A DNA stretch of 64,000 bases from a virus (IMGVR_UViG_3300036546_000207:3002-67001), one strand, 5' to 3'. Positions 8,201 to 62,769 are shown, counted from the first letter of the stretch. Notes: generated by a model not told the origin, from the letters alone. Translations and numbers: made by a program.

Positions 8201-9290
8201 CACTGGCAGGCTTAACCGCTTTCAGGGGCTTGGGGTCAAAATACAGATCCAGCTCGACGCCGTTTTTGGTCAGCTCATCGATGCTGATATACCCAAGTTC
8301 GCCACCCTGCCCCATATCGGCATAGCCGAAGGCCTGCTGAGTGCCGCCCTGGGCGTCCTTTTCAGTAATGAACCAGTCGGCACTGTTCTGGAAGTAATGC
8401 AGGTAGACGGTGGCATTATCGCCCTTGCCGTCCTGATCATAGGTGGCCGCCATACCTTCGATAATGGCCGCAAGCGCTTTGGCACGGTCAGCCATACCGG
8501 CACCTTCTTCACCCTCAATGGCTTCCACCATGGCGCGGTACTGGCTGCGACTCAGGAACTTGCGGAAGCTATTCAGTGCAGCCATGCCAGCCGCTTTGAC
8601 CGCCTTGTACGGGGCCATGGCGCGACTTTCAGCCTCAACCTTGGCAATCTCAATCTGGTCATGCAGGCCTGACAGTTCATATTCCAGATCGGCGATCTCA
8701 GTACGCAGACCTTCGATCATCTCCAGGCGTTCGGCACGCTTGGCGTTGGCCTTGGCAAAGGCGGCGCTGTTCTTCTGCGCCAGTTTCATGATGCGGCGCG
8801 CCACTTCACGAATCTGCAGGTCATTGCCGCGCTCAGGGGCCACCACGATGGTAATGTCCTTCTTGTTGAGTAGCCACTTCCAGCTGATCATCTCGTCATT
8901 GGGCGCGAGCTTGCCGGGGGTGTTATCCGGGTTGTGGAAATACACGGAAACCGTCTGGCCGTCCTGTAGCTCGAATACAGCCGCCACCTGGGCGACGCCG
9001 TTGCGCTTAAACGGGTCGGACACCTGCATGGCCGTCACGCCATAGCCATCAATGGCGCGATCCATGGTGCGAGACAGGATTTCCATCTTGCGCTTGAGCT
9101 TTGAAAAGGGGGTTACCAGGGCATCGAAGGCGAATTGCTCGACACCTTCTTCCTGTAGGATTTCATCAAGGGTAACGCTGTCAAACAGCAGGCCATCCTG
9201 ACTGTCATGGCGGCGCATACGGTAAAGGAGCTGATCGAGCGACAGGCCAACAGGCTCGTTCTGCTCGGTCCAGGCAACGGAGTGGTTCAT
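5259..9290 (-). CDS. darA: DarA-like internal head protein, 1343 aa, with added DUF2958-like and DdrB-like ParB domains
   Basis: N-terminal segment (FELQDGQTVSVYFHNPD...ISWKWLLNKKDITIVVAPE) is the DarA N-terminal domain. Internal LHYF..WFITE..GELGYISIDEL segment and LQPRDR..GAPIV..VESGNGR segment. Lies between hdf and darB. Confidence 0.8.
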   Translation of the reverse strand: MNHSVAWTEQNEPVGLSLDQLLYRMRRHDSQDGLLFDSVTLDEILQEEGVEQFAFDALVTPFSKLKRKMEILSRTMDRAIDGYGVTAMQVSDPFKRNGVAQVAAVFELQDGQTVSVYFHNPDNTPGKLAPNDEMISWKWLLNKKDITIVVAPERGNDLQIREVARRIMKLAQKNSAAFAKANAKRAERLEMIEGLRTEIADLEYELSGLHDQIEIAKVEAESRAMAPYKAVKAAGMAALNSFRKFLSRSQYRAMVEAIEGEEGAGMADRAKALAAIIEGMAATYDQDGKGDNATVYLHYFQNSADWFITEKDAQGGTQQAFGYADMGQGGELGYISIDELTKNGVELDLYFDPKPLKAVKPASAGTDEAEAGLAKAHAELDGRIDALSDDEAQRMAQALELKVGAGKDPRDVIKQQHPDDQRRGLDLISFSADNWDVSPEVVRALDEKAFNAVIEELTDYNHHGAVVVLQARRKGTAAQITEAEQIMQEQESAGHLTPQLAERRDALEAELMAAGEAATEQADPTTPEGYAAIMDDEAALTAVQDQLDSFFQARMIEVRNALRELGWEGERFKTLSKNGVAAVFDLIQVGAGANVAGMTVNGIRDDLTKTPAELAAEVDALAVDAEQESSETAVSGSEDDNSDLYAALYAEAVDMGLSPLSPDAYMQEINTGARQGMSLAEIENSLAEYRQMLLDLRAKKITPRRVVGRGAKQSDAVNWINGQIEKNEQAISTGGIGLYVNASNYAYYLRGLINEAPKADNSEPARPSFEVGDELEWRNDNGTLTGIYRGPLDETTAVIVVGGMQMNAPIAELYPIGDVADQDAAENAEGDLVPEGSTNLVKTAKGTQIETGFTLVEADSLIASHDSAGNPNPDYPQELQPRDRGRDASIAWVKKTANQLDPDSLGKTRRADTGAPIVGPDGVVESGNGRTMAIQEAYRSGKADEYREWLMEEAEFFGLSADKVRGMKAPVLVRVRTSAIDRREFAIEANQDDKLSMTATEKARADADRIDEALIARMSDDGDLLATGNRDFLAGFMQSLGDTEAAQYLTSDGAPTASLISRVQAAIFAKAYNDDRLLEMAADVSKPEVANVINALNAAAPEFIRAQAADQDGAGALASQLVDSVEVSLNEQAVQAIIDATNLVRIARSEGASVEEMVNQRGLFGDIPPATAAMALFINQNNRSSKRLGVAFRAMAEFLRVEAERGQTVDMFGDSQQASLEEIIAAANRELDKEYGEGEYAISSLDMFSPPAEPDPVTDEPEPVEPEAMTEPDQQAVEPEKQADTDYLQSIIDQTIADPLASDIADKLGEIFGRNAGDAEMETLIEQAAMAYQNAVMQATANL

Positions 9291-32379: not shown

Positions 32380-32455
32380 TGGTGGACCCGGCCGGAATCG
32401 AACCGGTCGTCTATGCAGTTATGAGCTGCCTCGCTTTGCCATAAGCTACAGGTCC
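32380..32455 (-). tRNA. tRNA with CAT anticodon, probably Ile2
   Basis: 76 nt: acceptor GGACCTG/CGGGTCC + ACCA, D stem GCTT/AAGC, anticodon loop CTCATAA, T loop TTCGATT. C4-G69 and C5-G68 pairs are the TilS determinants. Confidence 0.85.
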
Positions 32456-47773: not shown

Positions 47774-47974
47774 ATGGACTGGATCAGACTTCCCCAGTAC
47801 CTTGCGCAGACCGGCGAAAGCCGCCGAACCTGGAACAGACTCATCGAAGAAGGCGAACTTCTTGAAGAGTTGCACTATCGTTACGATAATCGCAACCGGG
47901 TATGGGTCAATTTGAAGGCAATGTCAGCATGGGTAGAAGGCAAAAAACCACGGAGACGCCGGAACGCGGCGTAA
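47774..47974 (+). CDS. xis: Excisionase (Xis)
   Basis: MDWIRLPQY..GE...W..EELHY..RVWVNL.AM..WVE winged-helix pattern; overlaps the integrase start. Confidence 0.7.
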   Translation: MDWIRLPQYLAQTGESRRTWNRLIEEGELLEELHYRYDNRNRVWVNLKAMSAWVEGKKPRRRRNAA

Positions 47975-49170
47975 GCATACGCAAAACGCCATCGGGCAAA
48001 GAAGCCCTGCAAATTCAATACACCTTCAGGCGCAAGCGCTACCGCCACTCCCTGAACGTCCCGCCTACCCCGGCCAACATACGGGCCGCAAACCAGAAGA
48101 TCAGCCAGATTCGGCTTGAGATCGAAATGGGCATGTATGACCCTGATCGTCATTTCGCGCCCAAGACTCAAGATGCACGCATCATAGAGCGAACCATTGC
48201 GGAACTGGTCAAAGACCGCATGGACCGCAAGCTGAGACTGTCCGGCTCACAGGGCTGGGAAGAGTCCACCTATGGCGAACGCTTGAAGATGTTTGAAAAG
48301 CATATCAAGCCGAACTTTGGCCACCTCACCCTGCCGGAACTAACCGGTCGTCATATCAAGGCATGGCTCGAAAAAGCTGAGTTTGGCCTGACGCATGGCC
48401 AGCTCATCATGAGCCTGCTCAATCCCATTGTGCGCGAGGCTTTGGCCGAAGGCACTATCGACAAACACCCCTACCAACACATACGGCTGGCCGAATATCT
48501 CGGCCAAGCCACCACTCGCCAGCGGAAAGAGCGCATCGATCCGTTGGGTGAAGAGGAGATACACCTGCTGCTGCAGGCATTCACCGATCCCCAGGTGCGC
48601 AACTACTACCAGTTTATGCTGTTCACCGGACTGCGCCTGCAGGAGGGCCCGGTGGTTGAATGGGGCGACATAGACTGGAACAACCGGACGATAACCGTAT
48701 CGAGAGCCGTAGGCTTTGCCAATAACGAGGAGTACCTGAAAACCACAAAGACCGGCGAAGAGCGCATTGTGGAGTTGCTGCCACCGGCCTGGGAGGCCCT
48801 GCAGGACCAGCGCCAATACAGCCAGCTCGCAGGCGGCCTGATATTCAGGCCAAAGAACAAAACCCGAGGCAACCGTTACGACTGGATGGCCCGGACCCAC
48901 CTTCGAAGTTTGTGGACCAGCGGGCTGAAGAGAGCGGGCATCCGGCACACTAACCGGTCACCGAAGCAGACCCGACACACGTTTTGCTCATTGATGATTG
49001 CGGCAGGCAAGCCGCTTACGTGGGTAGCCCAGCAGGCAGGCCATTCGAGCCTTGCCATGCTCGAGCGGCACTACGCCAAGGCGGTGCGCCTGGCAGCAGG
49101 CAAGCATCAGGACTACGACTTTACCAAAGCGCTCGAGGAGGCCCGTGAGCGTGCGGCGCAGGCTGAATAG
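47929..49170 (+). CDS. int: Tyrosine integrase with N-terminal arm-binding domain (DUF3596-like)
   Basis: TGLRLQE, KTTKT, QTRHTF, AGHSS..HY catalytic set. Start could be 47902 or 47929. Confidence 0.92.
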   Translation: MGRRQKTTETPERGVSIRKTPSGKEALQIQYTFRRKRYRHSLNVPPTPANIRAANQKISQIRLEIEMGMYDPDRHFAPKTQDARIIERTIAELVKDRMDRKLRLSGSQGWEESTYGERLKMFEKHIKPNFGHLTLPELTGRHIKAWLEKAEFGLTHGQLIMSLLNPIVREALAEGTIDKHPYQHIRLAEYLGQATTRQRKERIDPLGEEEIHLLLQAFTDPQVRNYYQFMLFTGLRLQEGPVVEWGDIDWNNRTITVSRAVGFANNEEYLKTTKTGEERIVELLPPAWEALQDQRQYSQLAGGLIFRPKNKTRGNRYDWMARTHLRSLWTSGLKRAGIRHTNRSPKQTRHTFCSLMIAAGKPLTWVAQQAGHSSLAMLERHYAKAVRLAAGKHQDYDFTKALEEARERAAQAE

Positions 49171-49481: not shown

Positions 49482-49964
49482 TCACCTCGGCTTGAGCACC
49501 TCTGTACTCACCCCCGCCCGCTTGTCGATCGAACGCATCGCACCAATGCCAAGCATGGCACCCAGTAAGCCGATCAGATCGGTCAATCCAAGGTCAGGGA
49601 ACTCCGGCAGCATCAGATCACCCTCTGCAGGCATTCCTGCACCCAGGACGATATAGCAATTCCACGCCCACATGGCAGTCAGTAGCAATGCCTTTGGCAT
49701 GTACGCCATCGCCAGCGAGATAGCCGCTACCCACCCGACCATTGGACGCCACCCAGCCACAAACAGGCTCTTGTGCTGAGCCTCAGCCTTGTTGACCTCA
49801 ACCTGGGCCAGCATTAGCTGTACGTGCGCCTGCAGCTCGGCAAGGCTGCCCTTCTGTGCCAGTTCGGCCAGCTTGCGCTGTTCTTCGGCCTGCTGGGCAG
49901 GATCCGGCCAGATGCGCTTAATTGCCGCATCACCGATCGAAAGAATCGCAGATATTGCATCCAT
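49482..49964 (-). CDS. Holin (3TM / GTA-holin-like family)
   Basis: IWPDP..QVEVNKAEAQHKSLFVAGWRP.VGW..LLGAMLGIGAMRS.DK. Confidence 0.8.
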   Translation of the reverse strand: MDAISAILSIGDAAIKRIWPDPAQQAEEQRKLAELAQKGSLAELQAHVQLMLAQVEVNKAEAQHKSLFVAGWRPMVGWVAAISLAMAYMPKALLLTAMWAWNCYIVLGAGMPAEGDLMLPEFPDLGLTDLIGLLGAMLGIGAMRSIDKRAGVSTEVLKPR

Positions 49965-50951: not shown

Positions 50952-50991
50952 ATTGTGGCGGCGCGGGCATGCCGAGACTCGCTATTTTTCC
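50952..50991 (-). promoter_or_regulatory. Putative late promoter (GGAAA-N29-CACAAT) of the lysis operon, overlapping the RT stop codon
   Basis: Shared motif; spacing is one base shorter than at the other five sites. Confidence 0.45.
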
Positions 50992-52031
50992 GGGATAGAC
51001 TTTGTGTTACGCACCAAGACAAGATCGCCAAGGACGCCTTCAACCGTCTTGTGTGCCTGGCAGTGCTTTGTATAAGCCAAGAACGACATTACCCGGCTCC
51101 TTACAGTTGAAAATGATTCCCTGCCATTCGCGTATCGCTTCGAAAGCGCGCGGAAATCTCTACGGGCGCGCTTTATGTTTCTTTTGCGAGGCAGAATATG
51201 CGTTGGCCATGTCCGGTAACCACAGAAGTCTATGCCACGCTGCCATGGATGAATTGCAGTTTTGGGATTCATGCTGAGCCCAAGGCTATTTACCTCAGAG
51301 GTAAGGGCTTTAAGAGTTTTTACTGCTGTTTTTTTATCAGGAAGAACAGCAACAAAGTCATCCATATACCGAACATAATATTCAATACCTAAATCGTCCT
51401 TTGCAAAGTGATCTAGTCTGTTAAGCACTATGTTCGCACCAAGCTGGCTTGTAAGGGCGCCTACCGGCAATCCAACACCTTCATCATGCCCATAACCAGA
51501 GCAGTTCCTAAACCACAAGTCTACAATCTTTTTGTCGGATATAACTCTGCCAAATTCGTGCATTAAAACATCATGCTTAATACTGGCAAAATATCGACTA
51601 ATATCAGCTTTCAATATGTAGCAGCTATTGCCCCACTTCCTTAGCGCACATCGAATAAAATGCTGAACTCGATTCACAGCTCGCTGGGTGCCTTTGTTAC
51701 GACGACAAGCGTATGAGTCGTAGATAAACCTGTCCTCAAAGAATGGCTCAACCAAACCAACAAGAGCATGATGCAACACCCTGTCACCAAATGGCGGCGC
51801 CTGTATGGCCCTGCGCTTTGGCTCAAATACTACAAACTCTCTCGGCTTGCCTGGGCGCCATGAGTTCCAGATAAGGTGGTTTTGAAGATTTACAATATTT
51901 TCTTCCACGTTGGATGTGTATTTAAGAACCTCTGGCTGGTAACGCTTACTTGCTCTTGCTCGAAGATAAGCGCTATAAAGACTCTCAAACTGGATCAAGT
52001 CTTCCCATAGGTTTTTAATTGTGCGAGGCAT
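50982..52031 (-). CDS. DGR reverse transcriptase
   Basis: F.DRVLHHAL, LKADISRYF.SI.H, GLPVGALTSQ (DGR-type GxxxSQ), YVRYMDDF, GIDFCGY. Confidence 0.95.
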   Translation of the reverse strand: MPRTIKNLWEDLIQFESLYSAYLRARASKRYQPEVLKYTSNVEENIVNLQNHLIWNSWRPGKPREFVVFEPKRRAIQAPPFGDRVLHHALVGLVEPFFEDRFIYDSYACRRNKGTQRAVNRVQHFIRCALRKWGNSCYILKADISRYFASIKHDVLMHEFGRVISDKKIVDLWFRNCSGYGHDEGVGLPVGALTSQLGANIVLNRLDHFAKDDLGIEYYVRYMDDFVAVLPDKKTAVKTLKALTSEVNSLGLSMNPKTAIHPWQRGIDFCGYRTWPTHILPRKRNIKRARRDFRALSKRYANGRESFSTVRSRVMSFLAYTKHCQAHKTVEGVLGDLVLVRNTKSIPEK

Positions 52032-52196
52032 TAATCTATCTCAGAGGAATGTTGTTGACAGGCACTGCCACATTCGCGGTTATATAGCTACTAGCCGCAG
52101 CGCCCTATATATCTTCGACCACATGGTCATGATACTGGCCCCAAAGGATACGCACTGGCAAGCACTCCTTAAAGCACTTACTTCTGGCGATAGTCG

Positions 52197-52303
52197 TTTG
52201 CGAGGCGGCCGCCGATGTTCGTGTTCGAGTTCGAAGCAGCGTTGTTGACGTTCAGATAGAAGAGACCAGCGTTGGCCCCGTTGCTCCAATTGCCGCCGTG
52301 TTA
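52197..52303 (-). repeat. DGR template repeat (TR)
   Basis: 107 bp aligning without gaps to 53635..53741; non-coding; eight AAC triplets in the target frame. Confidence 0.95.
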
Positions 52304-52321
52304 AGCCAGCACCATCTATTC

Positions 52322-52678
52322 TTATTTTCTAGAAGCATCTGCCTCCTGCTTTATCCAGCCGCCGACCATTCGGCCAACTTCGTTTATGTGCCGCATCCAG
52401 ATATCAAGCCGCCGTGTATTTATATAGCCAAGCCTGTGGGATTTTCGAACGCGCGCGCGCAGAACTTCAATTTCAACATCGATATCAAAAAGGGCAGCTG
52501 ATTTTTGGCGGCGTTTCCATGCAATGACAACAAGCCGCATAAGCTGGCCTGTCGAGTCGCGTATATCAGCGCACAACAAATGGCGCTCAAGTTTGGGGAA
52601 TTGGTGCAAAACCGTATGGCTGTAGCTGTCCAACTCCTCAAGCTTTACCATAAGCGCGAGCGATTCAACACCACTCAT
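52322..52678 (-). CDS. avd: DGR accessory variability determinant Avd
   Basis: 118-aa basic four-helix protein (QFPK.ER..L..I..EVGRMVGGWIK) immediately upstream of TR. Confidence 0.92.
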   Translation of the reverse strand: MSGVESLALMVKLEELDSYSHTVLHQFPKLERHLLCADIRDSTGQLMRLVVIAWKRRQKSAALFDIDVEIEVLRARVRKSHRLGYINTRRLDIWMRHINEVGRMVGGWIKQEADASRK

Positions 52679-52992
52679 GACAGAGGAGGCGTCGGTTTGC
52701 CTCGGTCGTGCTCAATGCTTTTTTCGCAGTGATTGGGATCCAGGCGATCCAAAAAACGGCACAGCAAGCACCCCCACTTGCGCCCCCTGCGCGCAGCTTT
52801 TCCGGCCCGACTGCTGATGGTTTCATCTTCATGACCACCAAAAACCACATTTGCCAGTTGATCGTGTGCGACCGCAAGGCGCCATGCGCGCTGACTACCT
52901 GCCAGAGCAGAAAGCAGCATCCAGAGGCAGGCCAAAATGCCTGCCGCCGTGCAGATTAACCAAAGCATCAGCAATGCAATCCGCTTTACCAT
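52675..52992 (-). CDS. Small membrane-associated phage protein (105 aa)
   Basis: N-terminal TM, DQLANV.FGG.EDETISSR.G..W...C..L..LDPNHC; stop overlaps the avd start. Confidence 0.65.
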   Translation of the reverse strand: MVKRIALLMLWLICTAAGILACLWMLLSALAGSQRAWRLAVAHDQLANVVFGGHEDETISSRAGKAARRGRKWGCLLCRFLDRLDPNHCEKSIEHDRGKPTPPLS

Positions 52993-53564
52993 TGCAAAAG
53001 CTCCAGCTCTTCAACCGTTGTAGCGCGCTCAACTTGATCCTCGAGCGACTGCCTCCGACCGATGATCTCGCCAGCCGCTGCCGCGTAAGCCTCCATCTTC
53101 AATACTACGCGCGCTGCGAGATCACTCAACTCAACACCACGCGCAGACGAGATTGCAGAAAGCAACGGCGCTGGCTGTGTGGGATCGGCAAGGATGCGCT
53201 CAGCCTCCTTTACTTGCTGAGGCCAGCTGGAGACTTCATGTTCAGGGTACTGACTTGCTAGTTTCGCGATCTCTTCATCACAAGACTGGCTTAGCTGGGT
53301 TATCAGCTCGCGTTTTCGGTGCCTCAGGCGTGCATTACCACTCGGCTCAATCGCGATCTGTTTCAGTAGCCGGTAGGAACCAGTCGCACACGCAGGCACC
53401 TCTTCGACGGCACCGTTTTCAGTGACAGAAACAAATATTCCTTTTTCACGATACTCTTCCGGAACACTCCAGATTGAGACCGAAGCCTCTCTGCCGGTTT
53501 CAGGGATCGTCATCATGGCTTTGCCATTGATATGCAAAATATGATCAATAATCTCGATATTCAT
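52986..53564 (-). CDS. Tail fibre assembly-like protein (DUF4376-like C-terminus)
   Basis: YP.HE..SWPQQ..EA..APLL.AI..ARG...LA.RV..K...Y....G..IGRRQ.LED. Confidence 0.65.
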   Translation of the reverse strand: MNIEIIDHILHINGKAMMTIPETGREASVSIWSVPEEYREKGIFVSVTENGAVEEVPACATGSYRLLKQIAIEPSGNARLRHRKRELITQLSQSCDEEIAKLASQYPEHEVSSWPQQVKEAERILADPTQPAPLLSAISSARGVELSDLAARVVLKMEAYAAAAGEIIGRRQSLEDQVERATTVEELELLQW

Positions 53565-53578
53565 AATCTAGCTCCTGA

Positions 53579-53597
53579 CCTCCCGCTTGGCGGGAGG
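53579..53597 (-). other. DGR target-recognition hairpin/cruciform downstream of VR
   Basis: CCTCCCGC-caa-GCGGGAGG perfect 8-bp GC stem, about 30 nt after the target stop codon. Confidence 0.8.
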
Positions 53598-53627
53598 CCG
53601 TAGACAAAACACAAGTTACAAAACCCG

Positions 53628-56195
53628 TTACACCTTTGCGAGGCGGCCGCCGAGGCCCGTGTACGAGAACGAAGCAGCGTCGGTGACGTACAGACAGAAG
53701 AGACCAGCGTTGGCCCCGTTGGACCAATTGCCGCCGTGGTAGGCGACCTTGTCCGCACCATTGCTGTAGAAACGGTCCGCATACGTTCCGTTGCTGTCTG
53801 TTGCATCAGTAGTTGCAGGCGCAAAGACCGAGCTCATGTCGTAACCAGCACCGGATTCGGTTTCCATGGTGATGGGGTAACCCGTTGCAGGCACGGTCTT
53901 GTTAGTGGATATGTAGGTCTGATTACCGTTTTCGTCCCAGATTTTGTAGCGGCTATTGGCATCCGTACCGAAGCCGTCGACCATCTGCCACACGTTGCCC
54001 CACAGGCCAACAAAGCCGCGCCATGTAGCCTGTGCAACCGTTGCATCGTCTGTATTAAGTGCCGAGCTACCACTGACATGACCCTGGCCGATCAGGCTTT
54101 GAGAGTCGGAACCTCCCATCTCGATCAGGGCGAGCGTCTGGATCGCGGCCAGTTGGTAGATTGACCACAGCATAAACCCGCTGACGCCGCTCACATTGCG
54201 TGCCGCAGCGCGTGCCTGCATTGTCGGGAAGTCAATACTGACCAAAGGCTTCAATCCTGGCGCAGACCCCAGCTTTGCGCCATCTGCAGTGCCTTGGTAT
54301 TTACCAGCCCAGAACTGTTCTATCTCTACGCCTGCATTCATAAAGGCAGGGTGTAGCGAAAAACCGTCCGCCGGCTGATCCGAGATCATCCAGAACCGTT
54401 TTCCTGTATAAGGGCCGCTAGGCACAAGACCACCCTTATAGTAAAACTTGGGCACCTTATTCATGGCCTGCCCATCGATGGTCTGGCCTATTACACCCGC
54501 GTACACAGGGTGATTGTTGAAAGTTGCGCTGGTCGTGGATAGTGCGTTAAAGCTCTCATCCACGCGCTGCCAGGAGCCTGATCCGCCGCCGGTGCTGACC
54601 TGTACGATGCCAATTATTTGCGCGAACAGCTCCTTGGTGGAGAACGTTATTTCCTGACTCCATTCAGACCATCCAAGCGCCGCCCCAAGGTGTCGAACGC
54701 GGACAACGTATTGCGTCTGCCCAGCCTGCAGTACACCAGCAGGAACGGTGTGCGCAGTCTTATCGGTTACTTCGCCGGAGTCATATTCAGGGGCAGTCCA
54801 TGAGCCGCCTGAAAGTCTGATCTGCCACTGGCTTCCTTGGTGTGTATCTTCACCACCCACGGACGCGAACGCGCCAGACTGCAGTGTTGGCTGCTCAGCA
54901 ATGTCTGTTTGGCCATTTGTTGGGCTGATAACCTGGGGCGTATCCACATAGGCAAAGCTGGCCTTTGTGGTGAAGCTGGTAATCGTGCACCAGTCAGAAA
55001 CAAGCCCTGCTGCGTCTTTAAAGCGAGCGCGCAGATAGTATGTTGTCGCAGCTCCGATAATACCGGCCGGCAGCGAGTACGACATGCCCGGAATATCGCC
55101 AGAGTCATGCAGTACAGAGCTGAACGATGATGCGGCGCTCAGCTGGAATTGCGCGAACGCAAACGCATTGCCTGCAGGGCTGACAAAGTCGGTAACCGTG
55201 AGCGTTGGTCGCTCACTGACATCAACTGCATTGTCGGCAGGACTTGTCACGGAAGGCGCACCAGGTCGCATTTCGGGGTTGATGTAGCCACCCAGATCGG
55301 TGGTACCCCCAAGCGCGGCAATGTGAAGAACTTCGATCGATTCGCCTTCGACCTCCATTCGCAAATACCCATCTCCGCGCATCGGGATAAGGTACTCGTA
55401 GTCAGCAAACCCCTCAGGCACACCTGTCGTCCCGCCACCGGCACGACGCACGGACCAGTATGCCTCTGTCCAATCTTTGCTCGCATCGCGATAGAAAAAA
55501 CGGGCATTGGCCGCATTGAGTGTCCGACGGATAACTACTGCCCGGGAATCATTATCGGTCCCGAGGTTGATGGCACCTGACGCCCAGACACCTCCAGCCT
55601 GAGCAGATACACCACCACCGACACGGCCTGTAAGAGTACTGCCGGTAATAACTGAGCCAGAGCCCCAATTGCGGCCGAGGTTTGATGACAATCGAAGTCG
55701 AGTCATCGACAGAACGTCTTTGACTCGAACCAGTGAAATGTTTTCGCCATCGGACAGGAAGTAATCCTGACCCGGATTTATTCCGGCCGTGCTCTCGATA
55801 TCAAGGGAATCATCGCCCATGACGCCGGATATGATGTTGACGTTGCTCAGGCCCTGGATAGTGTAGCCTTCCGCAAATAGCTCAATGGCGATGCGGCGAC
55901 CACGGTACAGCCAGTCAAGGCCGACCGCCTTCTGAATTGATGCAGGGCTGGCAAGGCTAATCAAATCATCGGAAATGCCACCTACCTGCTGCACGATCTC
56001 AGCAATAGCTTCGCCCAGGCTCGACCTGCCCTGGCGCGCCTCGCTAATTTCGTCTTCTGTGCTGGTGACCCGGGCATCCAGATCGCTGAAGTTTTCATCG
56101 ATCTCACGGTATGTGTTATTCCAAAGCTCAGGTACTGCATCCGGCTCGGTTTCTGGAATTTTCGTAATATCAGGGTGTGGAATACGCGACGCCAT
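53628..56195 (-). CDS. Tail fibre / receptor-binding protein, DGR target with C-terminal C-type-lectin-fold (Mtd-like) domain
   Basis: 855 aa; two FN3/Ig-like repeats (PSVTSP.. / PQVISP..); C-terminal GLWGNVWQMVDG...HGGNWSNG..AGLF..GGRL containing the VR. Confidence 0.9.
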   Translation of the reverse strand: MASRIPHPDITKIPETEPDAVPELWNNTYREIDENFSDLDARVTSTEDEISEARQGRSSLGEAIAEIVQQVGGISDDLISLASPASIQKAVGLDWLYRGRRIAIELFAEGYTIQGLSNVNIISGVMGDDSLDIESTAGINPGQDYFLSDGENISLVRVKDVLSMTRLRLSSNLGRNWGSGSVITGSTLTGRVGGGVSAQAGGVWASGAINLGTDNDSRAVVIRRTLNAANARFFYRDASKDWTEAYWSVRRAGGGTTGVPEGFADYEYLIPMRGDGYLRMEVEGESIEVLHIAALGGTTDLGGYINPEMRPGAPSVTSPADNAVDVSERPTLTVTDFVSPAGNAFAFAQFQLSAASSFSSVLHDSGDIPGMSYSLPAGIIGAATTYYLRARFKDAAGLVSDWCTITSFTTKASFAYVDTPQVISPTNGQTDIAEQPTLQSGAFASVGGEDTHQGSQWQIRLSGGSWTAPEYDSGEVTDKTAHTVPAGVLQAGQTQYVVRVRHLGAALGWSEWSQEITFSTKELFAQIIGIVQVSTGGGSGSWQRVDESFNALSTTSATFNNHPVYAGVIGQTIDGQAMNKVPKFYYKGGLVPSGPYTGKRFWMISDQPADGFSLHPAFMNAGVEIEQFWAGKYQGTADGAKLGSAPGLKPLVSIDFPTMQARAAARNVSGVSGFMLWSIYQLAAIQTLALIEMGGSDSQSLIGQGHVSGSSALNTDDATVAQATWRGFVGLWGNVWQMVDGFGTDANSRYKIWDENGNQTYISTNKTVPATGYPITMETESGAGYDMSSVFAPATTDATDSNGTYADRFYSNGADKVAYHGGNWSNGANAGLFCLYVTDAASFSYTGLGGRLAKV
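53635..53741 (-). repeat. DGR variable repeat (VR)
   Basis: Differs from TR at 13 of 107 positions, 12 of them TR adenines. Confidence 0.95.
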
Positions 56196-56211: not shown

Positions 56212-56589
56212 TCAGTAACGAATCTTGATGTTTACTCGAAATGCCTCATCGGCTTCTTTCGGCTTGGCCTTGAAGTGCCTGAACGCAACTACACGCCCCA
56301 GATCGTCAAACACGGCAACCTCGGAGATGTCAGAACCGACCAGTTCATTCTTGTCGAGCGATGCAGTGACGGTTGCGGAATAGTCATCCTCTTGGAATGG
56401 AATAACTTCCTTCCGAAGTAGCTCGTTGATCAGCCCTTCAGCATCTCGGTCAACGGGTACCACCGTGCCATCCGGGTTCGCTGCACCATCACCAAACGCA
56501 ACAAAGCGCAGTGGTCGGACGCTTGTTTCGGCGGTTGCTGTTGCTGCCGCCATGCGTCGGCGATGGCTATTGGCCAGTACACCGCTCAT
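56212..56589 (-). CDS. Tail fibre/baseplate attachment protein (P1 gpR-like)
   Basis: 125 aa; FVAFGDG..ISEVAVFDDLG..VA...F..K.K..; directly upstream of the fibre. Confidence 0.6.
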   Translation of the reverse strand: MSGVLANSHRRRMAAATATAETSVRPLRFVAFGDGAANPDGTVVPVDRDAEGLINELLRKEVIPFQEDDYSATVTASLDKNELVGSDISEVAVFDDLGRVVAFRHFKAKPKEADEAFRVNIKIRY

Positions 56590-57857
56590 GTAGTAAACCC
56601 TCGCTTATTTGAAATCGTGATAACGGGCGATATGACACCCGACAGGCGCCACGCTCCATCAACCTTCAGGCGCGCTACTCCCTGAGGAATGTAGGAGCGC
56701 TGATTGGACTGAATCTTAAACCGCCCAATCTTTGGTGTTGCGTACATTTTCCGGGTTGGCATTCTGCGCCCATCAAGCAAGAACGAACCCAGGCGCAACG
56801 CTCCCCCTACGCGCCAGTCGCCGTTTACCTGGCGATACACGACAGCCAGACGAACGGGGGCCTTCGTGAACACGGGTTCTGGAGTTGGCGGCAAGGTTTC
56901 GGTCTGCCAGAAGCCAGTATCAATATCGACATCGGTCTGCATGTCGGTGACGACCACTCGACTTCCGACCTGCCAATACGCCTCGCCGCCGGCAGCATGT
57001 CCAATCCTGAATGAGCCAAACGCAGCCGACAGTGTTGGGTAGCTGTCATCCCGACCCATTTTGATAGTTCGCTCATCATCAGAAGTGATGAGCTTTCGAT
57101 CCCACGGGTAGCGGGCCTCAATAGACTTTTCGGTTTCTATCCCGGCATCAGCCTGAATCAAAACCAAAACAAGGACGGCCAGCCACATCACAATATCGGG
57201 TGACAGCCGGGCCGGTATGATCGACTGAAAAATCGGCAGGAGACTGGCAATAGACGGCGGTACTGACCCGATGTCTGCTGAAATCTCAATTCGGCTGGTT
57301 AGCCACAGGCCATCGGTGCCGCGGTCGGAGCTGCTTTTTCGCTCCTCAAGCTCTGCAGGATCTGAAATCCACCGCCCAATCCCCCAGTTACCGCTGAGTG
57401 TCAGCTCCGGCTCGCCGATTTGGTGCAACCACCAGGAGGTCTGATTGGTTGCTCCTCCCGTGAGCGCCGTAGGGTACGGTTTAGATTTATCGTGCCAAAG
57501 CTGTGTGACCTGAAACATGCCGGGCGCAAGCAGCTCCAAGTACGTGCGCAGAAAATGGAGTCCACGCTTCTGCACATCGCCAGACTTCCATGCGCGATAC
57601 AGGTAGCGTGTTGCCGCCTCTTCCCGCTCACCTGGCAGCAAAACCAGACCGTCATGGTTGACCATGCGGCGCACCAAATCGAACGAACCCAGATGCGCAG
57701 CGCCCAATACGTTGGCGTCGAATGAGTCTTGGCCCAGCGCTTCGAACAGATCAAGGAACACCTGCTTAAGCTCATGCTCAATATCGCCGACGGTGTGACT
57801 GTTGCGAAGAGGTGAGGCTGCCGGCACCTGAGATGCCTTGAAATCAAACTGACTCAC
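56586..57857 (-). CDS. Baseplate protein (P1 gp16-like)
   Basis: RGLHFLRTYL..L.P motif; synteny bplA-16-R-S. Confidence 0.6.
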   Translation of the reverse strand: MSQFDFKASQVPAASPLRNSHTVGDIEHELKQVFLDLFEALGQDSFDANVLGAAHLGSFDLVRRMVNHDGLVLLPGEREEAATRYLYRAWKSGDVQKRGLHFLRTYLELLAPGMFQVTQLWHDKSKPYPTALTGGATNQTSWWLHQIGEPELTLSGNWGIGRWISDPAELEERKSSSDRGTDGLWLTSRIEISADIGSVPPSIASLLPIFQSIIPARLSPDIVMWLAVLVLVLIQADAGIETEKSIEARYPWDRKLITSDDERTIKMGRDDSYPTLSAAFGSFRIGHAAGGEAYWQVGSRVVVTDMQTDVDIDTGFWQTETLPPTPEPVFTKAPVRLAVVYRQVNGDWRVGGALRLGSFLLDGRRMPTRKMYATPKIGRFKIQSNQRSYIPQGVARLKVDGAWRLSGVISPVITISNKRGFTT

Positions 57858-59353
57858 AGCCCAGCTCCCCAGTAAGGCGTGAGCACGTTGCCTGATGTTA
57901 CAGAGACTTCCAGCGACGAATCAGACACATAACGCCACAACTCTGGCCGCGAGTCGGCCAGCGCTGATTCCTCAATTACTACGCGCAAATCAGCCCGTCC
58001 TACGCTCAGAGCGGGCACTTTGCCGCGAATGATCTGGTAAATCTGCTGATACAATGGCGTTGAGTGGCCGCGGCGGGACTGGGCTGCAGCTTCACCGAAT
58101 TGCTCCAGAATTGCCGTCCTGATCTGACTGGCTACCACGCTTTCATCGTATGAGGATGCAACAGTAGCGGTCACCTGTACCGGAATTTCGCGCCTAATTG
58201 CTGAATAGAACCGCACACGATAGCTGTCATCAGCTGCTTCGATCTTTGCTTTAATCTGCTGCATAGTGGCGGTCAACTCGGTAAATTCGACGGGTGCGAC
58301 CGGGCCCGTTTCGACTGTCTCATTAAGCACGGTCTCGGCACCGGCTTCAGACAGGCAGGCCACAAACAGCGCATTGATGTTGTCCAGATGCATGCCGCGC
58401 ACGGACTCTTCAACCTGCTCATTCCAGACAGACAGGAAACGCAAGGACGGGAAGTGGCGACGCACCAGGAAGTCGAATTCCCCCAGGAATACGGCGTTGT
58501 GATTGTAGACGGAGGGGTAGCGGGCCAGTTCGCGCAATGTCTGCATGGTCGGCGGGTTCTGACCAGCCGCTAGCAGCGTTGTGATCTTCATTTCGATCTG
58601 CGACTCAACCGGTGCCTGTATAGTCTCAAACACAAGCTGCTCACCGGCCGAAAAATCCACTGCGCCCATGGAGTAGAACCCCGTCAGCGTGATATCAGCC
58701 CCATCGATCGGCTGAGTGCCCACCACGCCTTCTTGACCAAAGCGCACATACACGCGGCGGCGCTCGTCCACTTCCAAGTGGTAGACCTTTTCACCTGCTG
58801 TCGTATTGACGTAGCGTTCCCGGTACTCATAAGCGCCGCTGCTGTCGCGCACGGACAGTCCGCACAGGTGCGAGTCATCATCCGCCAGTGCAACCGGTAT
58901 CTCATAGAATGGCCGCGATCCTGCTACCGTGTGCACTTGCTCCTTGGCATACAGCTGCACGGCCACGAAGGTGCCGGTACCGCCTGCCTCGACGATAACT
59001 GAGGTATCAGCTCGATACAGGCGCCCCTGAGAGTCCATCAGGCTGCGACCCTGGGCCACCTCGACGATGGTGGTGCTGGCATTGTGAACTTGAACTTCCA
59101 CGCTGGCCGGAACGGCTTTCGGTATCAGGCCGCGCATGGCCGCATCCGCCATGACCGTGCTGTCACGGGATTTTTCGAACGGCTCAGCCTGTGCAACCTC
59201 CAGCTGGGCGGAATACATCTCCAGCATGGTCGCCATCGCCTCAATCTGCTGCATGACGCGCGGATCACCCGCCTTTACCAGCGTCGCGACAGACGGGTAC
59301 TTGGCAATACTGGCCTCGATGGCCTTTTGGACAAACTCTTCGCGGGTAAACAT
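57854..59353 (-). CDS. Baseplate wedge protein (P1 BplA / gpJ-like)
   Basis: 499 aa; RD STV.ADA..G..P, V.FG....G..P; synteny. Confidence 0.7.
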   Translation of the reverse strand: MFTREEFVQKAIEASIAKYPSVATLVKAGDPRVMQQIEAMATMLEMYSAQLEVAQAEPFEKSRDSTVMADAAMRGLIPKAVPASVEVQVHNASTTIVEVAQGRSLMDSQGRLYRADTSVIVEAGGTGTFVAVQLYAKEQVHTVAGSRPFYEIPVALADDDSHLCGLSVRDSSGAYEYRERYVNTTAGEKVYHLEVDERRRVYVRFGQEGVVGTQPIDGADITLTGFYSMGAVDFSAGEQLVFETIQAPVESQIEMKITTLLAAGQNPPTMQTLRELARYPSVYNHNAVFLGEFDFLVRRHFPSLRFLSVWNEQVEESVRGMHLDNINALFVACLSEAGAETVLNETVETGPVAPVEFTELTATMQQIKAKIEAADDSYRVRFYSAIRREIPVQVTATVASSYDESVVASQIRTAILEQFGEAAAQSRRGHSTPLYQQIYQIIRGKVPALSVGRADLRVVIEESALADSRPELWRYVSDSSLEVSVTSGNVLTPYWGAGL

Positions 59354-59694: not shown

Positions 59695-62600
59695 CTACCC
59701 CATGCCGCTGTAAGCGCCGGTGACAATGTGTGCAATGCGACCATCGGAGATATTGCGACCCACGTCGCTAGGCTCGCGACTGCGATCTTCACCCTTTGAT
59801 TTGGCGCTATCGCCCATTGGCGCTGAAACGCTTGGTGCATCAGCAATCGCCACTGGAGGCACTGCAGCCGCTTTGATCGGCCGTGGTGCGGCGCTGGCCA
59901 CTACAACCGAAGAGTTGGAGCTGCGCAGGTTCTCATCTGTTATGCCTGATGCCTCACGCTCTCGCTGGATGCGCGCAAGCGTCTGCTCGCGCTCATAGGC
60001 GATCATCTCGGCCTGAGTGTTGAAGTATTTGACGTTGGGACCGCCGCCGTTAACGATCTGATCTTGCCGGGCAAGCGCTTCATCAATCTCACGCTGATCC
60101 TGCTCTGCTTGAAAATCACGAGGCTTTTCGGCAGCCTGAGGCGCAGCCGCTACAGCAACAGACGGCGTAGCATTCAGCTCACCGCCGTGGGCTTCTGGTA
60201 GGTACTCTCGCGTCAGCGCAATGCGATCCGCAAGGCCATTGGTACCGCCGTTGATCTTGCGGGTGACCGCCTCGACATCGCCGGACTTGGCAGCATCACT
60301 CAGGCCGGGGCGGCTCTTCCAGTACCAGGTCGCGATCTTTGCAGCCACTTCGGGGTCAGCCGCCATATCGGGGTTGTTGACCAGATCCAAGCCCAGCGCT
60401 TCGCCTGCAGCTGCATAGTTGGCACGGCCTGTCAGCTGGGTGTAGCCACGGCCTCGGAAGTTATAGCCGTCGCCCTCTTCGGTGTTGCCAAGGTTTTTGC
60501 GGCCCCACTCACCGCCATACATGGCTTCACCCATGGCCCCCTTGCCTTGCGCAATAATGGCCTTGGCTTCATCCACGGTGCTGATGCCGGCTCGCTTGCC
60601 AAACAGCTTGAGGAACTGCTCAGGCTTGTAATTCAGGTTCTCCTCAACCTGGGTGAAGCCTGCAGACTCATGGTGCATCTGTGCCATGAATTGCGCCTGC
60701 TCCATCGGGTCTGTGATCCCGGAGTTCGCCATCTCTTGACGCAGTGCCTGCTTGCCTACCGCATAGTTCGAGCTTTTACGCGAGGCCTCAACAAGGCCCT
60801 TGGCTCCAGTAGCCTCGTAGACGCTGGAACCCGCCTTTTTGGCCCAACCCCACAGCGACTCACCCACGCCAATGATCTTGTCCTTGGCACCTTCAACCAC
60901 CTCCCCTGCTTTCTCTTTGGCTGCAGAGTAGGTTTCGCTGACCACCTGACCAGCGGTTGAGACGGTTTCGGCAATGTCGATGCCAGTCTTTTCCTTGACG
61001 TACTCATTGGCCTGGCTGGCAACATCCTTGATGGAGCCCCACCACTTTTCAGCAAGGCCGGTCACCTTGTCCCAGGCTTCACCCATGCCTGCAACGGCGG
61101 TAGACCACTTCTCAGAAATACCGTCTGCAATGGTGTTCCACTTGTCCGTGAACGCGGTTGATATGCCATCCCAAGTGGTTGAGAGCGTGCCTGTTACTGT
61201 TGACCAGGTCTCGCTGACTTTTGTGGTAGTGCTGTTCCAGGCATCCGATACCGTCGTGGTTACCGAACTCCACGCGTTCGATACCGTGCTGGTAACAGTG
61301 TTCCACTTCTCCGATACCGCGTTGCTGGCCTGGCCCCACAGGTGCGAGGCAAAGTCTGTTGTCTGATTCCATGCGGATACGATTGAACTGCCGATCTTGG
61401 AATCGCGCAGATCACCAACCCATTCACCGACCTTTTCACCGATCACGTCGCCAGCCGAATCACCCAGCCAGCCGCCTACGGCTGCGCCCACAATGCCGCC
61501 AATGGCCGTGCCAATGACCGGTACCACAGACCCGAGCGCCGCGCCGGCAGCCGCACCGGCCGCCATGCCGCCAATACCGCCAACACCGCGACCAACTGCA
61601 GAGCCCGTCGCCTTGTCTTTCTCCTTGCGCGTCATGTCGCTGGTTTCGGAGGCGTGAACATCGTTCGCCATCAGCCCGAGACTGAGCAACGTTCCCAGGA
61701 TGGGAACCCTCTTGCCCAGCTTGGACGCGCCACGCAGCGCCTTGCCGCCACCGGTCTTGAGCATGCCGCGAATGCCGCCCCTGGCTGCACCTGAACCCGC
61801 TCTGGTTCCCGCCTTCGCCGCGCTTGCCGCCTTGGCACCACCTGCAGCCGCCGCTGCCTTAGACGCCTTACTGCCACCCGCAGCCGCACCTGCCAGCCTG
61901 GTTGCAAGCCCTTTGGCGCCAAGCGCCTTCGCAATTTTCGCCAGCAACCCAAGCGGGACCAACGCCTTCAAAATCCCGGCAAGGAAGGTCAGAATTGGTG
62001 CGAACAGTCCGCCCAGCGCCCCGAGCAGGCCGCCCTTTTTGCCGCCTTGGGCATCCTCGATATCATCCAGCTGATCGACAATCTCGGTATGCTGCTTGTT
62101 GTCGCGCTTGCGTCCTTGGCGCATCTGTCTCCAGAAGCGTCGATACCACCGATCTTGACCCGCATCGCCACCGCCAAAGATCTTGCCAAACCCGCGCTGC
62201 AGAGGCTGTGCCACCTCATTGAACGCCTTTACTGCAGGGTCCGACTCTTCGTTTACGGCCATCTCGCTAACCGCCCCGGTCAGACGGTCGCCCAGGTCGC
62301 TGATAGCGCCGCTCAATGCACCGCCTTCGCTACCACCCTCATCATCAGGCGTTTTGGCTCCGACGAACCGGCCAGAGGCATCCCGCTGGGCACTCGATTT
62401 GCTGGAATCGGGAATAGTTGAAGGCCGAGCTGCTGTCTGATCGCTAGCCGCTGGCTTGGCATCGGTAGACGCTACTGGCCCCGCGCCACCACCACTATCA
62501 ATCGCCCTGGCTCCGGATAATCGTCCCGAATCAATAACTGTCGGCTCAACCACGGTCCGGCTGGGTGCGGAGTCATTTGCAGCTGAGCGGCCGCTACTTG

Positions 62601-62769
62601 CATTAGGAACGCTACCGTTTCTCGATTTCGTTACCGGCGTGCTGACCGCGCCGATCGCGCGTGAAATAGCCTTCAGCTCGTCCAGAATATCGCCAAGGTA
62701 TCCATGCAGATCATCCTGCTGGACGCGCTGACCGGTCAGAAAGCCCTGTTCATCGTATTGCAGTGCCAT
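59695..62769 (-). CDS. Tape measure protein with GH19 (chitinase/lysozyme-like) muralytic domain
   Basis: Gly/Ala-rich TM region, 11-residue Trp-periodic repeats, then FMAQMHHESAGF..EGDGYNFRGRGYTQLTGR.NY..TRKINGGTNGLADR. Confidence 0.85.
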   Translation of the reverse strand: MALQYDEQGFLTGQRVQQDDLHGYLGDILDELKAISRAIGAVSTPVTKSRNGSVPNASSGRSAANDSAPSRTVVEPTVIDSGRLSGARAIDSGGGAGPVASTDAKPAASDQTAARPSTIPDSSKSSAQRDASGRFVGAKTPDDEGGSEGGALSGAISDLGDRLTGAVSEMAVNEESDPAVKAFNEVAQPLQRGFGKIFGGGDAGQDRWYRRFWRQMRQGRKRDNKQHTEIVDQLDDIEDAQGGKKGGLLGALGGLFAPILTFLAGILKALVPLGLLAKIAKALGAKGLATRLAGAAAGGSKASKAAAAAGGAKAASAAKAGTRAGSGAARGGIRGMLKTGGGKALRGASKLGKRVPILGTLLSLGLMANDVHASETSDMTRKEKDKATGSAVGRGVGGIGGMAAGAAAGAALGSVVPVIGTAIGGIVGAAVGGWLGDSAGDVIGEKVGEWVGDLRDSKIGSSIVSAWNQTTDFASHLWGQASNAVSEKWNTVTSTVSNAWSSVTTTVSDAWNSTTTKVSETWSTVTGTLSTTWDGISTAFTDKWNTIADGISEKWSTAVAGMGEAWDKVTGLAEKWWGSIKDVASQANEYVKEKTGIDIAETVSTAGQVVSETYSAAKEKAGEVVEGAKDKIIGVGESLWGWAKKAGSSVYEATGAKGLVEASRKSSNYAVGKQALRQEMANSGITDPMEQAQFMAQMHHESAGFTQVEENLNYKPEQFLKLFGKRAGISTVDEAKAIIAQGKGAMGEAMYGGEWGRKNLGNTEEGDGYNFRGRGYTQLTGRANYAAAGEALGLDLVNNPDMAADPEVAAKIATWYWKSRPGLSDAAKSGDVEAVTRKINGGTNGLADRIALTREYLPEAHGGELNATPSVAVAAAPQAAEKPRDFQAEQDQREIDEALARQDQIVNGGGPNVKYFNTQAEMIAYEREQTLARIQREREASGITDENLRSSNSSVVVASAAPRPIKAAAVPPVAIADAPSVSAPMGDSAKSKGEDRSREPSDVGRNISDGRIAHIVTGAYSGMG
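61050..61375 (-). repeat. Approximately 33-bp degenerate coding repeats in the tape measure (W every 11 aa)
   Basis: KWNTVTSTVSNAWSSVTTTVSDAWNSTTTKVSETWSTVTGTLSTTW... Confidence 0.75.

Follow-up and report, generated by a model that had tools for sequence, protein, structure and literature searches.

A diversity-generating retroelement joined to a tail-fibre-like gene in a phage with a distantly P1-type virion

Does the virus IMGVR_UViG_3300036546_000207 carry, behind its tail-fibre gene, a reverse-transcription-based hypermutation system in the place where phage P1 keeps its Cin-invertible fibre switch, and did the one replace the other? We analysed a 64,000-nucleotide stretch of this virus (IMGVR_UViG_3300036546_000207:3002-67001; hereafter the window), the full record of which comprises 67,001 bases with direct terminal repeats. 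An initial annotation had read positions 50982-56195 as a complete, apparently active diversity-generating retroelement (DGR) that replaces the P1 Cin switch on one virion chassis. Our analysis indicates with good confidence that the region holds a complete DGR of the type known from phage BPP-1, linked to the gene of the receptor-binding fibre in a temperate myovirus that encodes an integrase and whose virion is distantly of the P1 type. As a system, the DGR is textbook material, and its presence on a tail fibre is not new, phage tail-fibre DGRs being well catalogued (Roux et al. 2021, PMC8144416; Benler et al. 2018, PMC6199706). The parts worth keeping are the sharp-edged exchange of this cassette between chassis and the swap of one DGR for another at a single slot. 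Comparisons draw on 68 viral loci retrieved by searches with the target and reverse transcriptase (RT) sequences and on 46 loci in bacterial genomes retrieved by a further search; single loci are cited by their L numbers.

Components of the retroelement and its target

All genes of the region lie on the minus strand. The parts of the DGR and its target are as follows.

50982-52031, minus strand: DGR reverse transcriptase, 349 residues (RVT_1, 6e-22; phrog_1423, 4e-115)
52032-52196, minus strand: spacer of 165 nucleotides between template repeat and RT gene, the predicted structured 3′ part of the DGR RNA
52197-52303, minus strand: template repeat (TR), non-coding, between avd and the RT gene
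52322-52678, minus strand: Avd accessory protein, 118 residues (PF22296 bAvd, 3e-23; phrog_3206; NF033474)
53579-53597, minus strand: GC-rich hairpin downstream of the variable repeat, 8-bp stem, CCTCCCGC-CAA-GCGGGAGG
53635-53741, minus strand: variable repeat (VR), forming the final 35 target codons before AKV-stop
53628-56195, minus strand: DGR target, an 855-residue tail-fibre-like protein (phrog_5302 'tail protein', residues 573-853)

Offset by 1438, the two repeats can be aligned over 107 bases with no gap and 94 identities, and the VR ends two codons short of the target's stop codon. Twelve of the 13 differences fall at TR adenines; the TR holds 28 adenines in its 107 bases, and the probability that at least 12 of 13 differences would strike adenines by chance is 1.0e-6. 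Both translations given by the initial annotation, and its count of eight residue changes, proved correct. The TR and VR are the sole two copies of the repeat in the full 67-kb record, which contains no second VR. Fourteen TR codons contain adenine, nine of them of the form AAY, none can mutate to a stop codon, and about 3.9e13 protein variants are possible.

The proteins of the system are equally recognizable. The RT contains both VGALTSQ and YMDD, matching the [LIV]GxxxSQ of motif 4 and the YxDD of the catalytic motif in the DGR clade; it is 36% identical to Brt of BPP-1 (E 4e-51), and its best PDB sequence match is 8ub7 (E 7e-45), with the same residues aligned as in the alignment to Brt. 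Avd, 25% identical to its BPP-1 counterpart, passes the NCBIfam equivalog NF033474 at 95.7 bits against a cutoff of 80. Both genes had been named in the initial annotation and are borne out. The Rfam model RT-14 (RF02921) covers 52059-52193 over its full length at 42.2 bits, below the gathering score of 48.1 and thus a hint only; 14 relatives yielded no RT-14 match at the gathering threshold. An alignment of the spacer with those of 13 relatives predicts 42 base pairs, 23 of which show compensatory changes, and the predicted pairs include some that join the GC-rich 3′ end of the TR to a conserved TTTGGGGCC. No convincing internal promoter was found for the DGR region, and we infer that the phage expresses it.

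The elements expected around the VR, namely a GC-rich 3′ element, divergent tails (the initiation of mutagenic homing element, IMH, and its TR counterpart, IMH*) and an 8-bp hairpin, are all present. A GC-rich 14-mer, GGCGGCCGCCTCGC, closes both repeats, which end in GGCGGCCGCCTCGC-AAA and diverge after GCAAA; in the VR, this core of the IMH lies at 53638-53651. The hairpin lies 37 nucleotides past the TR/VR homology. Most relatives that bear the module have a hairpin at the matching place, 33-44 nucleotides past the homology, with stems that differ among them (GGCCCGC, TGCCCCGCGC, GCCCGCGCC, GGATCGCGC and others) through compensatory changes; it is therefore the structure that is conserved, not the sequence. 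Target-recognition hairpins have been described as GC-rich stems of 7-10 bp, located 4-34 bp from the VR, with GRNA loops (Guo et al. 2011, PMC3240598), and the window hairpin fits this description apart from its loop and a slightly greater distance.

The target is predicted to consist of N-terminal helices, a beta domain, tandem FN3/Ig-like domains and a C-terminal lectin-fold domain. Over its first 47 residues, it shares 53% identity with the fibre of Xanthomonas phage Rb1, a protein that occupies the matching position after homologous baseplate genes. An AlphaFold model of the N-terminal 559 residues (predicted local distance difference test score, pLDDT, 80) gives low-confidence helices followed by the beta domain and the FN3/Ig-like tandem, and matches FN3 tandems including that of the lambda tail tip. 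The C-terminal 296 residues, modelled from a 40-sequence alignment, reach a pLDDT of 84, with low values at the extreme C terminus. The initial annotation had proposed modelling the fibre tip; the only strong PDB matches of this tip are chains of the DGR variable protein TaqVP (5vf4, E 1.5e-10, template modelling score 0.57), which is also reached by sequence (E 1.3e-5). In the model, the variable residues are displayed on a C-type-lectin-type fold.

A different tail or surface protein, such as a decoration or depolymerase-like accessory, could also carry such a domain, and its diversification would then leave host range unaffected. No homology to P1 S was detected in the target, and the lectin domain is not restricted to fibres, many relatives carrying a second, short target of about 330-390 residues, with the lectin domain only, elsewhere in the genome. 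Against these points, the target gene directly follows baseplate and tail-collar genes on both P1-type and P2-type chassis, its N terminus is homologous to the Rb1 fibre, and it combines an elongated FN3-tandem architecture with a PHROG 'tail protein' match. In a P2-type relative, the target gene takes the position of gpH, flanked by the I-like gene and the sheath gene. We consider the alternative quite improbable and infer that the 855-residue target is the receptor-binding fibre; the claim of a complete BPP-1-type DGR, targeting the C-terminal lectin-fold tip of a fibre-like protein encoded immediately behind the baseplate genes, is supported.

The second short targets (L039-L049 and L088-L109, for example L089:7701-8879) have a VR-like end reading ...GGRLAKV, in some cases followed by a GC-rich hairpin of their own. 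In Gulbenkiania mobilis, one stands just after MuA/MuB-like transposition genes (phrog_310 and phrog_296).

Variation among relatives and the question of activity

The same fibre and DGR recur in about 60 related loci of phages and prophages, with relatives integrated in chromosomes and prophage hosts that include Gulbenkiania, Bordetella hinzii, Castellaniella, Pigmentiphaga, Pseudomonas and Burkholderiaceae genomes. Across about 30 non-redundant TR/VR pairs from these relatives, differences lie overwhelmingly at TR adenines. Five loci (L024, L025, L026, L033 and L034) have identical TRs, and their VRs differ pairwise at 7-15 positions, 7-14 of which are TR adenines; VR polymorphism over an invariant TR, which the initial annotation had named as a check of activity, is seen among these relatives. 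L024 and L026 are 99.9% identical over the 900 nucleotides upstream of the VR, and their VRs differ at 11 positions, 10 of them TR adenines. Such identical TRs beside different VRs in near-identical phages are the signature of ongoing mutagenic homing, and the family is therefore active in nature; the comparison is a clean natural demonstration of DGR activity. Cultured lysogens are available for its study: Gulbenkiania mobilis DSM 18507, Pseudomonas antarctica DSM 15318T, Castellaniella denitrificans CCUG 39541 and Bordetella hinzii LMG 13501.

Several observations speak against a complete and active DGR aimed at a receptor-binding fibre in the window phage itself. First, one VR difference lies off adenine, a G-to-C change that adjoins a mutated adenine close to the VR 5′ end (AGC to TCC, serine kept); it is either a point mutation after the last homing event or an RT error. 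In BPP-1, the 5′ end of the VR need not be overwritten in each homing event. Second, the hairpin loop, CAA, falls outside the GRNA consensus, and its distance of 37 nucleotides outside the reported 4-34 bp (PMC3240598). Third, Pfam searches of the target, whole and in halves, with E values up to 5, returned no lectin or FGE-sulfatase domain and a single Ig-like match only, and the proposed role of the protein rests on position, PHROG name and fold. Fourth, the TR of the nearest relative, L006, differs at 6 of 107 positions, so the window's lineage is without a same-TR comparison, and activity in this phage would follow from its intact parts and from its relatives.

A recently silenced fossil would look much like this: its parts would appear intact, homing would have ceased and the TR/VR differences would record past events. 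Cassettes of this family can decay, as in L008 and L023, where part of avd, the TR and most of the RT gene are lost, and the off-adenine difference in the window could be read in the same sense. That difference is just one of 13 and lies close to the VR 5′ end; every part, from RT and Avd to TR, IMH, hairpin and spacer, is intact and conserved, and relatives are demonstrably active. We hold silencing to be unlikely and read the window DGR as probably active.

Two side observations concern the same elements. Non-adenine changes beside mutated adenines recur in relatives: at TR position 45, TAT became GCT or GTT (T to G) in L012, L024 and L031, and the AGC-to-TCC change at 53722-53723 of the window (G to C) is of the same kind. 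These could be dinucleotide errors of the RT or the result of selection for particular residues. In L065, L066 and L067 (about 5660-9050), two avd–TR–RT cassettes stand in tandem after one fibre gene, the first with values of 43% for Avd and 41% for RT and the next with 73% and 64%, in what looks like a double DGR at one slot.

Exchange of the fibre and retroelement between chassis

The closest chassis relatives, found by a baseplate-protein search, include L123, in which bplA is 91% identical to the window homologue at the amino acid level and the genes after the RT are 94-97% identical. The slot between them holds a 307-residue fibre, a separate 350-residue variable protein and a different DGR (Avd 32%, RT 39%). 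This DGR has its own adenine-specific TR/VR pair (12 of 13 differences), as does that of L124 (10 of 10), and the RTs of the two are 39-41% identical to the window RT. In nucleotide sequence, L123 matches the window at 84% over 58899-57529 and at 88% over 50961-49193; between these segments, only the TRs match. The match resumes at 50961, which places the right boundary within about 20 nucleotides of the RT stop codon. L123 and L124 thus hold a different DGR in the slot, and the observed swap is therefore one of DGR for DGR.

The left boundary of the cassette against L123 falls inside the gene for a 423-residue baseplate-associated protein, at about 57529. The TRs of these otherwise unrelated cassettes are still 77-80% identical in nucleotide sequence (window 52210-52298 against L123:6359-6447 and L124:7559-7656), and this TR-to-TR match is the sole match within the block swapped between the window and L123/L124.

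Exchange between different chassis is seen in L073 and L074. L074 has a P1-type chassis (bplA 55%); L073, a prophage of Gulbenkiania, encodes a gpI-like protein upstream, and its record holds neither a bplA match nor a P1-type capsid. What the two have in common, at 89% nucleotide identity, begins exactly at the fibre start codon and ends exactly at the RT stop codon; nothing beyond it is shared, over more than 5 kb of available flank on each side. L058 and L059 behave in the same way. L025, a complete 40,964-base phage with terminal repeats, carries the module in a P2 order (V-W-J-I-collar-fibre-192-residue gene-105-residue gene-avd-TR-RT-sheath-tube). Between the window and L006, the fibre-to-RT block is 61-81% identical in nucleotide sequence and the flanks 84-90%. 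In a maximum-likelihood tree of 28 RTs, the two chassis types are interleaved, with five changes of chassis needed and at least three forced by well-supported branches; it must be set against this result that the tree was built by a 'quick' method and that the chassis labels come from tblastn matches in the flanks. The Mu-type label comes from the Gulbenkiania contig alone: the MuA-like transposase of Gulbenkiania had no match in five related virus records. A tblastn comparison of the relatives' flanks with the Mu tail region gave no matches.

Bounded by the fibre start codon and the RT stop codon, the block behaves as one discrete exchangeable host-range cassette, found on P1-type and P2/Mu-type chassis. 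The initial annotation had held the cassette to be acquired, citing the lower GC content of the RT. Acquisition stands in the sense that the whole fibre-plus-DGR block is a mobile unit; the GC argument is weak. The RT gene of the window has a GC content of 45.2%, the target 55.7% and the window as a whole 56.8%, and the RT–target gap of 10.5 points is the largest seen. RT GC content is below that of the target in 22 of the 22 relatives measured, by 0.4 to 7.6 points, so the lower value is family-wide and was rejected as proof of recent acquisition.

Taken together, we think it likely that the module is a self-contained hypervariable host-range cassette, exchanged horizontally between unrelated contractile-tailed chassis (P1-, P2- and Mu-type) and competing with other DGR cassettes for one slot. 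Fibre and DGR form one sharp-edged recombination unit that keeps 89% nucleotide identity between chassis in hosts of different bacterial orders, and this unit is exchanged for other DGR cassettes on the same chassis. If this reading is correct, possession of a DGR is a property of the fibre module and not of the phage lineage, which bears on the evolution of phage host range and would mean that the distribution of DGRs is to be read by module rather than by phage taxonomy. A limited text search of the literature, which is weak evidence, found no description of this clade or of cassette exchange between P1-type and P2/Mu-type phages.

The P1 comparison, a proposed mechanism and known systems

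The genes that flank or interrupt the DGR, and other features of the window, are listed below.

32383-32455, minus strand: tRNA gene, the only one (Rfam tRNA, 41.7 bits)
47902-49170, strand opposite to the cassette genes: tyrosine integrase, a 422-residue open reading frame (ORF)
49482-49964, minus strand: holin, beside the cassette
52675-52992, minus strand: 105-residue protein that travels with the fibre (phrog_34710)
52986-53564, minus strand: 192-residue protein in the fibre-chaperone position, a role assigned from position only (phrog_2618)
56212-56589, minus strand: tail-collar-like protein, 125 residues, upstream of the fibre (phrog_9521, 4618, 1780; outside the PHROG of P1 R)
56586-57857, minus strand: baseplate-associated protein, 423 residues (phrog_4620)
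57854-59353, minus strand: Baseplate J/P1 bplA homologue, 499 residues, a chassis gene outside the cassette (phrog_1369, the family of P1 bplA)

Along the minus strand, the order is bplA-like gene, 423-residue gene, tail-collar-like gene, 855-residue target, hairpin, 192-residue gene, 105-residue gene, avd, TR, 165-nucleotide spacer and RT gene; beyond the RT lie two small genes, the holin and, on the opposite strand, the tyrosine integrase. The integrase ORF had been tried as a second DGR target and was rejected on its identity.

Could an invertible Cin/cix fibre segment have been the ancestral state on a P1 chassis, with the DGR as its direct replacement, as the initial annotation proposed? 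The P1 order sit-pmgA-bplA-16-R-S-U-[C segment, cin]-lyd does parallel that of the window (tape measure, small protein, bplA, X, collar, fibre, chaperone-position gene, [switch], holin), and about 16 proteins are distantly homologous to P1 proteins. We take the virion to be distantly P1-type because tblastn of the window ORFs against P1 gave 16 matches at 23-53% amino acid identity (to DarA/DdrB, gene 5, sheath, capsid, gene 25, pro, pacB, ban, ssb, hrdC, sit, tub and portal among P1 genes); rep, par, cre, c1 and cin of P1 drew no match. The phage is distinct from P1 and has an integrative lifestyle: it shows no match to the repA/parAB, cre-lox and c1 that characterize the plasmid prophages of P1-like phages (Punavirus), and it carries the integrase at 47902-49170. 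Within the fibre module, bplA is the only family shared with P1, the proteins at the 16, R, S and U positions belonging to other PHROGs. No Cin/Gin homologue occurs in the window (best Cin E 0.87) or among about 135 related loci; the cultured relative Rb1, at 53% identity in the baseplate protein, lacks both cin and a DGR downstream of its fibre; and the nearest chassis relatives, L123 and L124, carry other DGRs in the slot. A direct replacement of Cin thus seems highly improbable, which corrects an attractive story. The comparison with Cin is a fair analogy of position, and the evidence supports no replacement event.

Megablast of the region against phage and plasmid collections returned no nucleotide match. 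Rfam across the whole window identified the single tRNA only and no C4 RNA. One DGR-bearing relative (L051:2258-2330) does encode a C4 antisense RNA (RF01695; 56 bits, above the gathering score), an immunity RNA of the P1/P7 type.

The genes interspersed in the module are less tightly bound to the DGR. The 105-residue gene precedes avd in one arrangement of relatives and follows the RT in another, so it is not a fixed part of the DGR. The alternative order, target-avd-TR-RT-192-residue gene-105-residue gene, occurs in L013-L019, L036, L085 and L095; the DGR core is therefore placed on either side of the two fibre-associated genes. The 192-residue gene follows the fibre in relatives both with and without a DGR. 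A profile comparison of its product with P1 U found no similarity (probability 0.9%), and homology to U was rejected on this value.

Upstream, the bplA homologue is 53% identical to the baseplate wedge protein of Rb1, and phrog_4620, the family of the 423-residue protein, is also matched by an Rb1 protein at the equivalent position. The 423-residue protein is a chimera, in which the N-terminal part belongs with the P1-type chassis and the C-terminal half (about residues 200-419) is also found in gpI-like proteins of P2/Mu-type relatives, the C-terminal matches overlapping P2-I-like matches. Further upstream, a tape-measure-like protein of 1024 residues (59695-62769) contains within it a domain of glycoside hydrolase 19 type (chitinase/lysozyme-like); in P1 Sit, an SLT transglycosylase domain takes this place.

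By homology with BPP-1, we propose the following mechanism. The region avd-TR-spacer-RT would be transcribed, and the structured spacer RNA and the GC-rich 3′ end of the TR would dock on an RT–Avd complex. The RT would then copy the TR into complementary DNA, misincorporating opposite adenines, and this DNA would replace the VR, guided by the GC-rich element common to both repeats, by the diverged tail of the VR (IMH) and by the DNA hairpin downstream. Up to 14 codons of the lectin tip could be rewritten in this way, none to a stop, giving about 4e13 variants and leaving the TR unchanged; the TR would be protected because its tail differs from that of the VR. Priming, integration and the effect on adsorption would all follow the BPP-1 precedent.

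Among known systems, the DGR targets of viral clades are mostly tail-structure proteins, including fibres with Ig-like domains beside the VR domain (Roux et al. 2021, PMC8144416), and the window target, with its Ig-like domains adjoining the VR domain, shares this layout. The closest parallel is BPP-1 (mtd-avd-TR-brt): both phages have the order target, avd, TR and RT, a VR at the 3′ end of the target, adenine-specific mismatches, a GC-rich element followed by a diverged tail, a downstream hairpin, an RT with SQ and YMDD motifs, and lysis genes and an attachment site after the cassette. BPP-1, however, is short-tailed and its target, Mtd, is a separate 381-residue protein beside the tail-fibre gene, whereas the window virion is contractile-tailed and distantly P1-type, with the lectin domain fused to an 855-residue fibre. 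The window further differs in the two extra genes (192 and 105 residues) between target and avd and in a hairpin loop that is CAA rather than GRNA. TaqVP from Thermus aquaticus (5vf4) similarly bears its VR at the C-terminal end of a lectin-type fold; it shares 18% sequence identity with the target and, unlike it, is a cellular, non-phage protein that lacks a fibre shaft.

Finally, the DGR resembles the P1 C segment with Cin and the Mu G segment with Gin in its position, behind the genes for the fibre and the chaperone-position protein and ahead of the lysis genes, and presumably in its purpose of changing receptor specificity. Unlike those loci, the window has no detectable invertase, duplicated fibre end or S/U homology. 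The mechanisms are unrelated: P1 and Mu switch between two states through DNA inversion by a serine invertase, whereas the window cassette would act by hypermutation based on reverse transcription.

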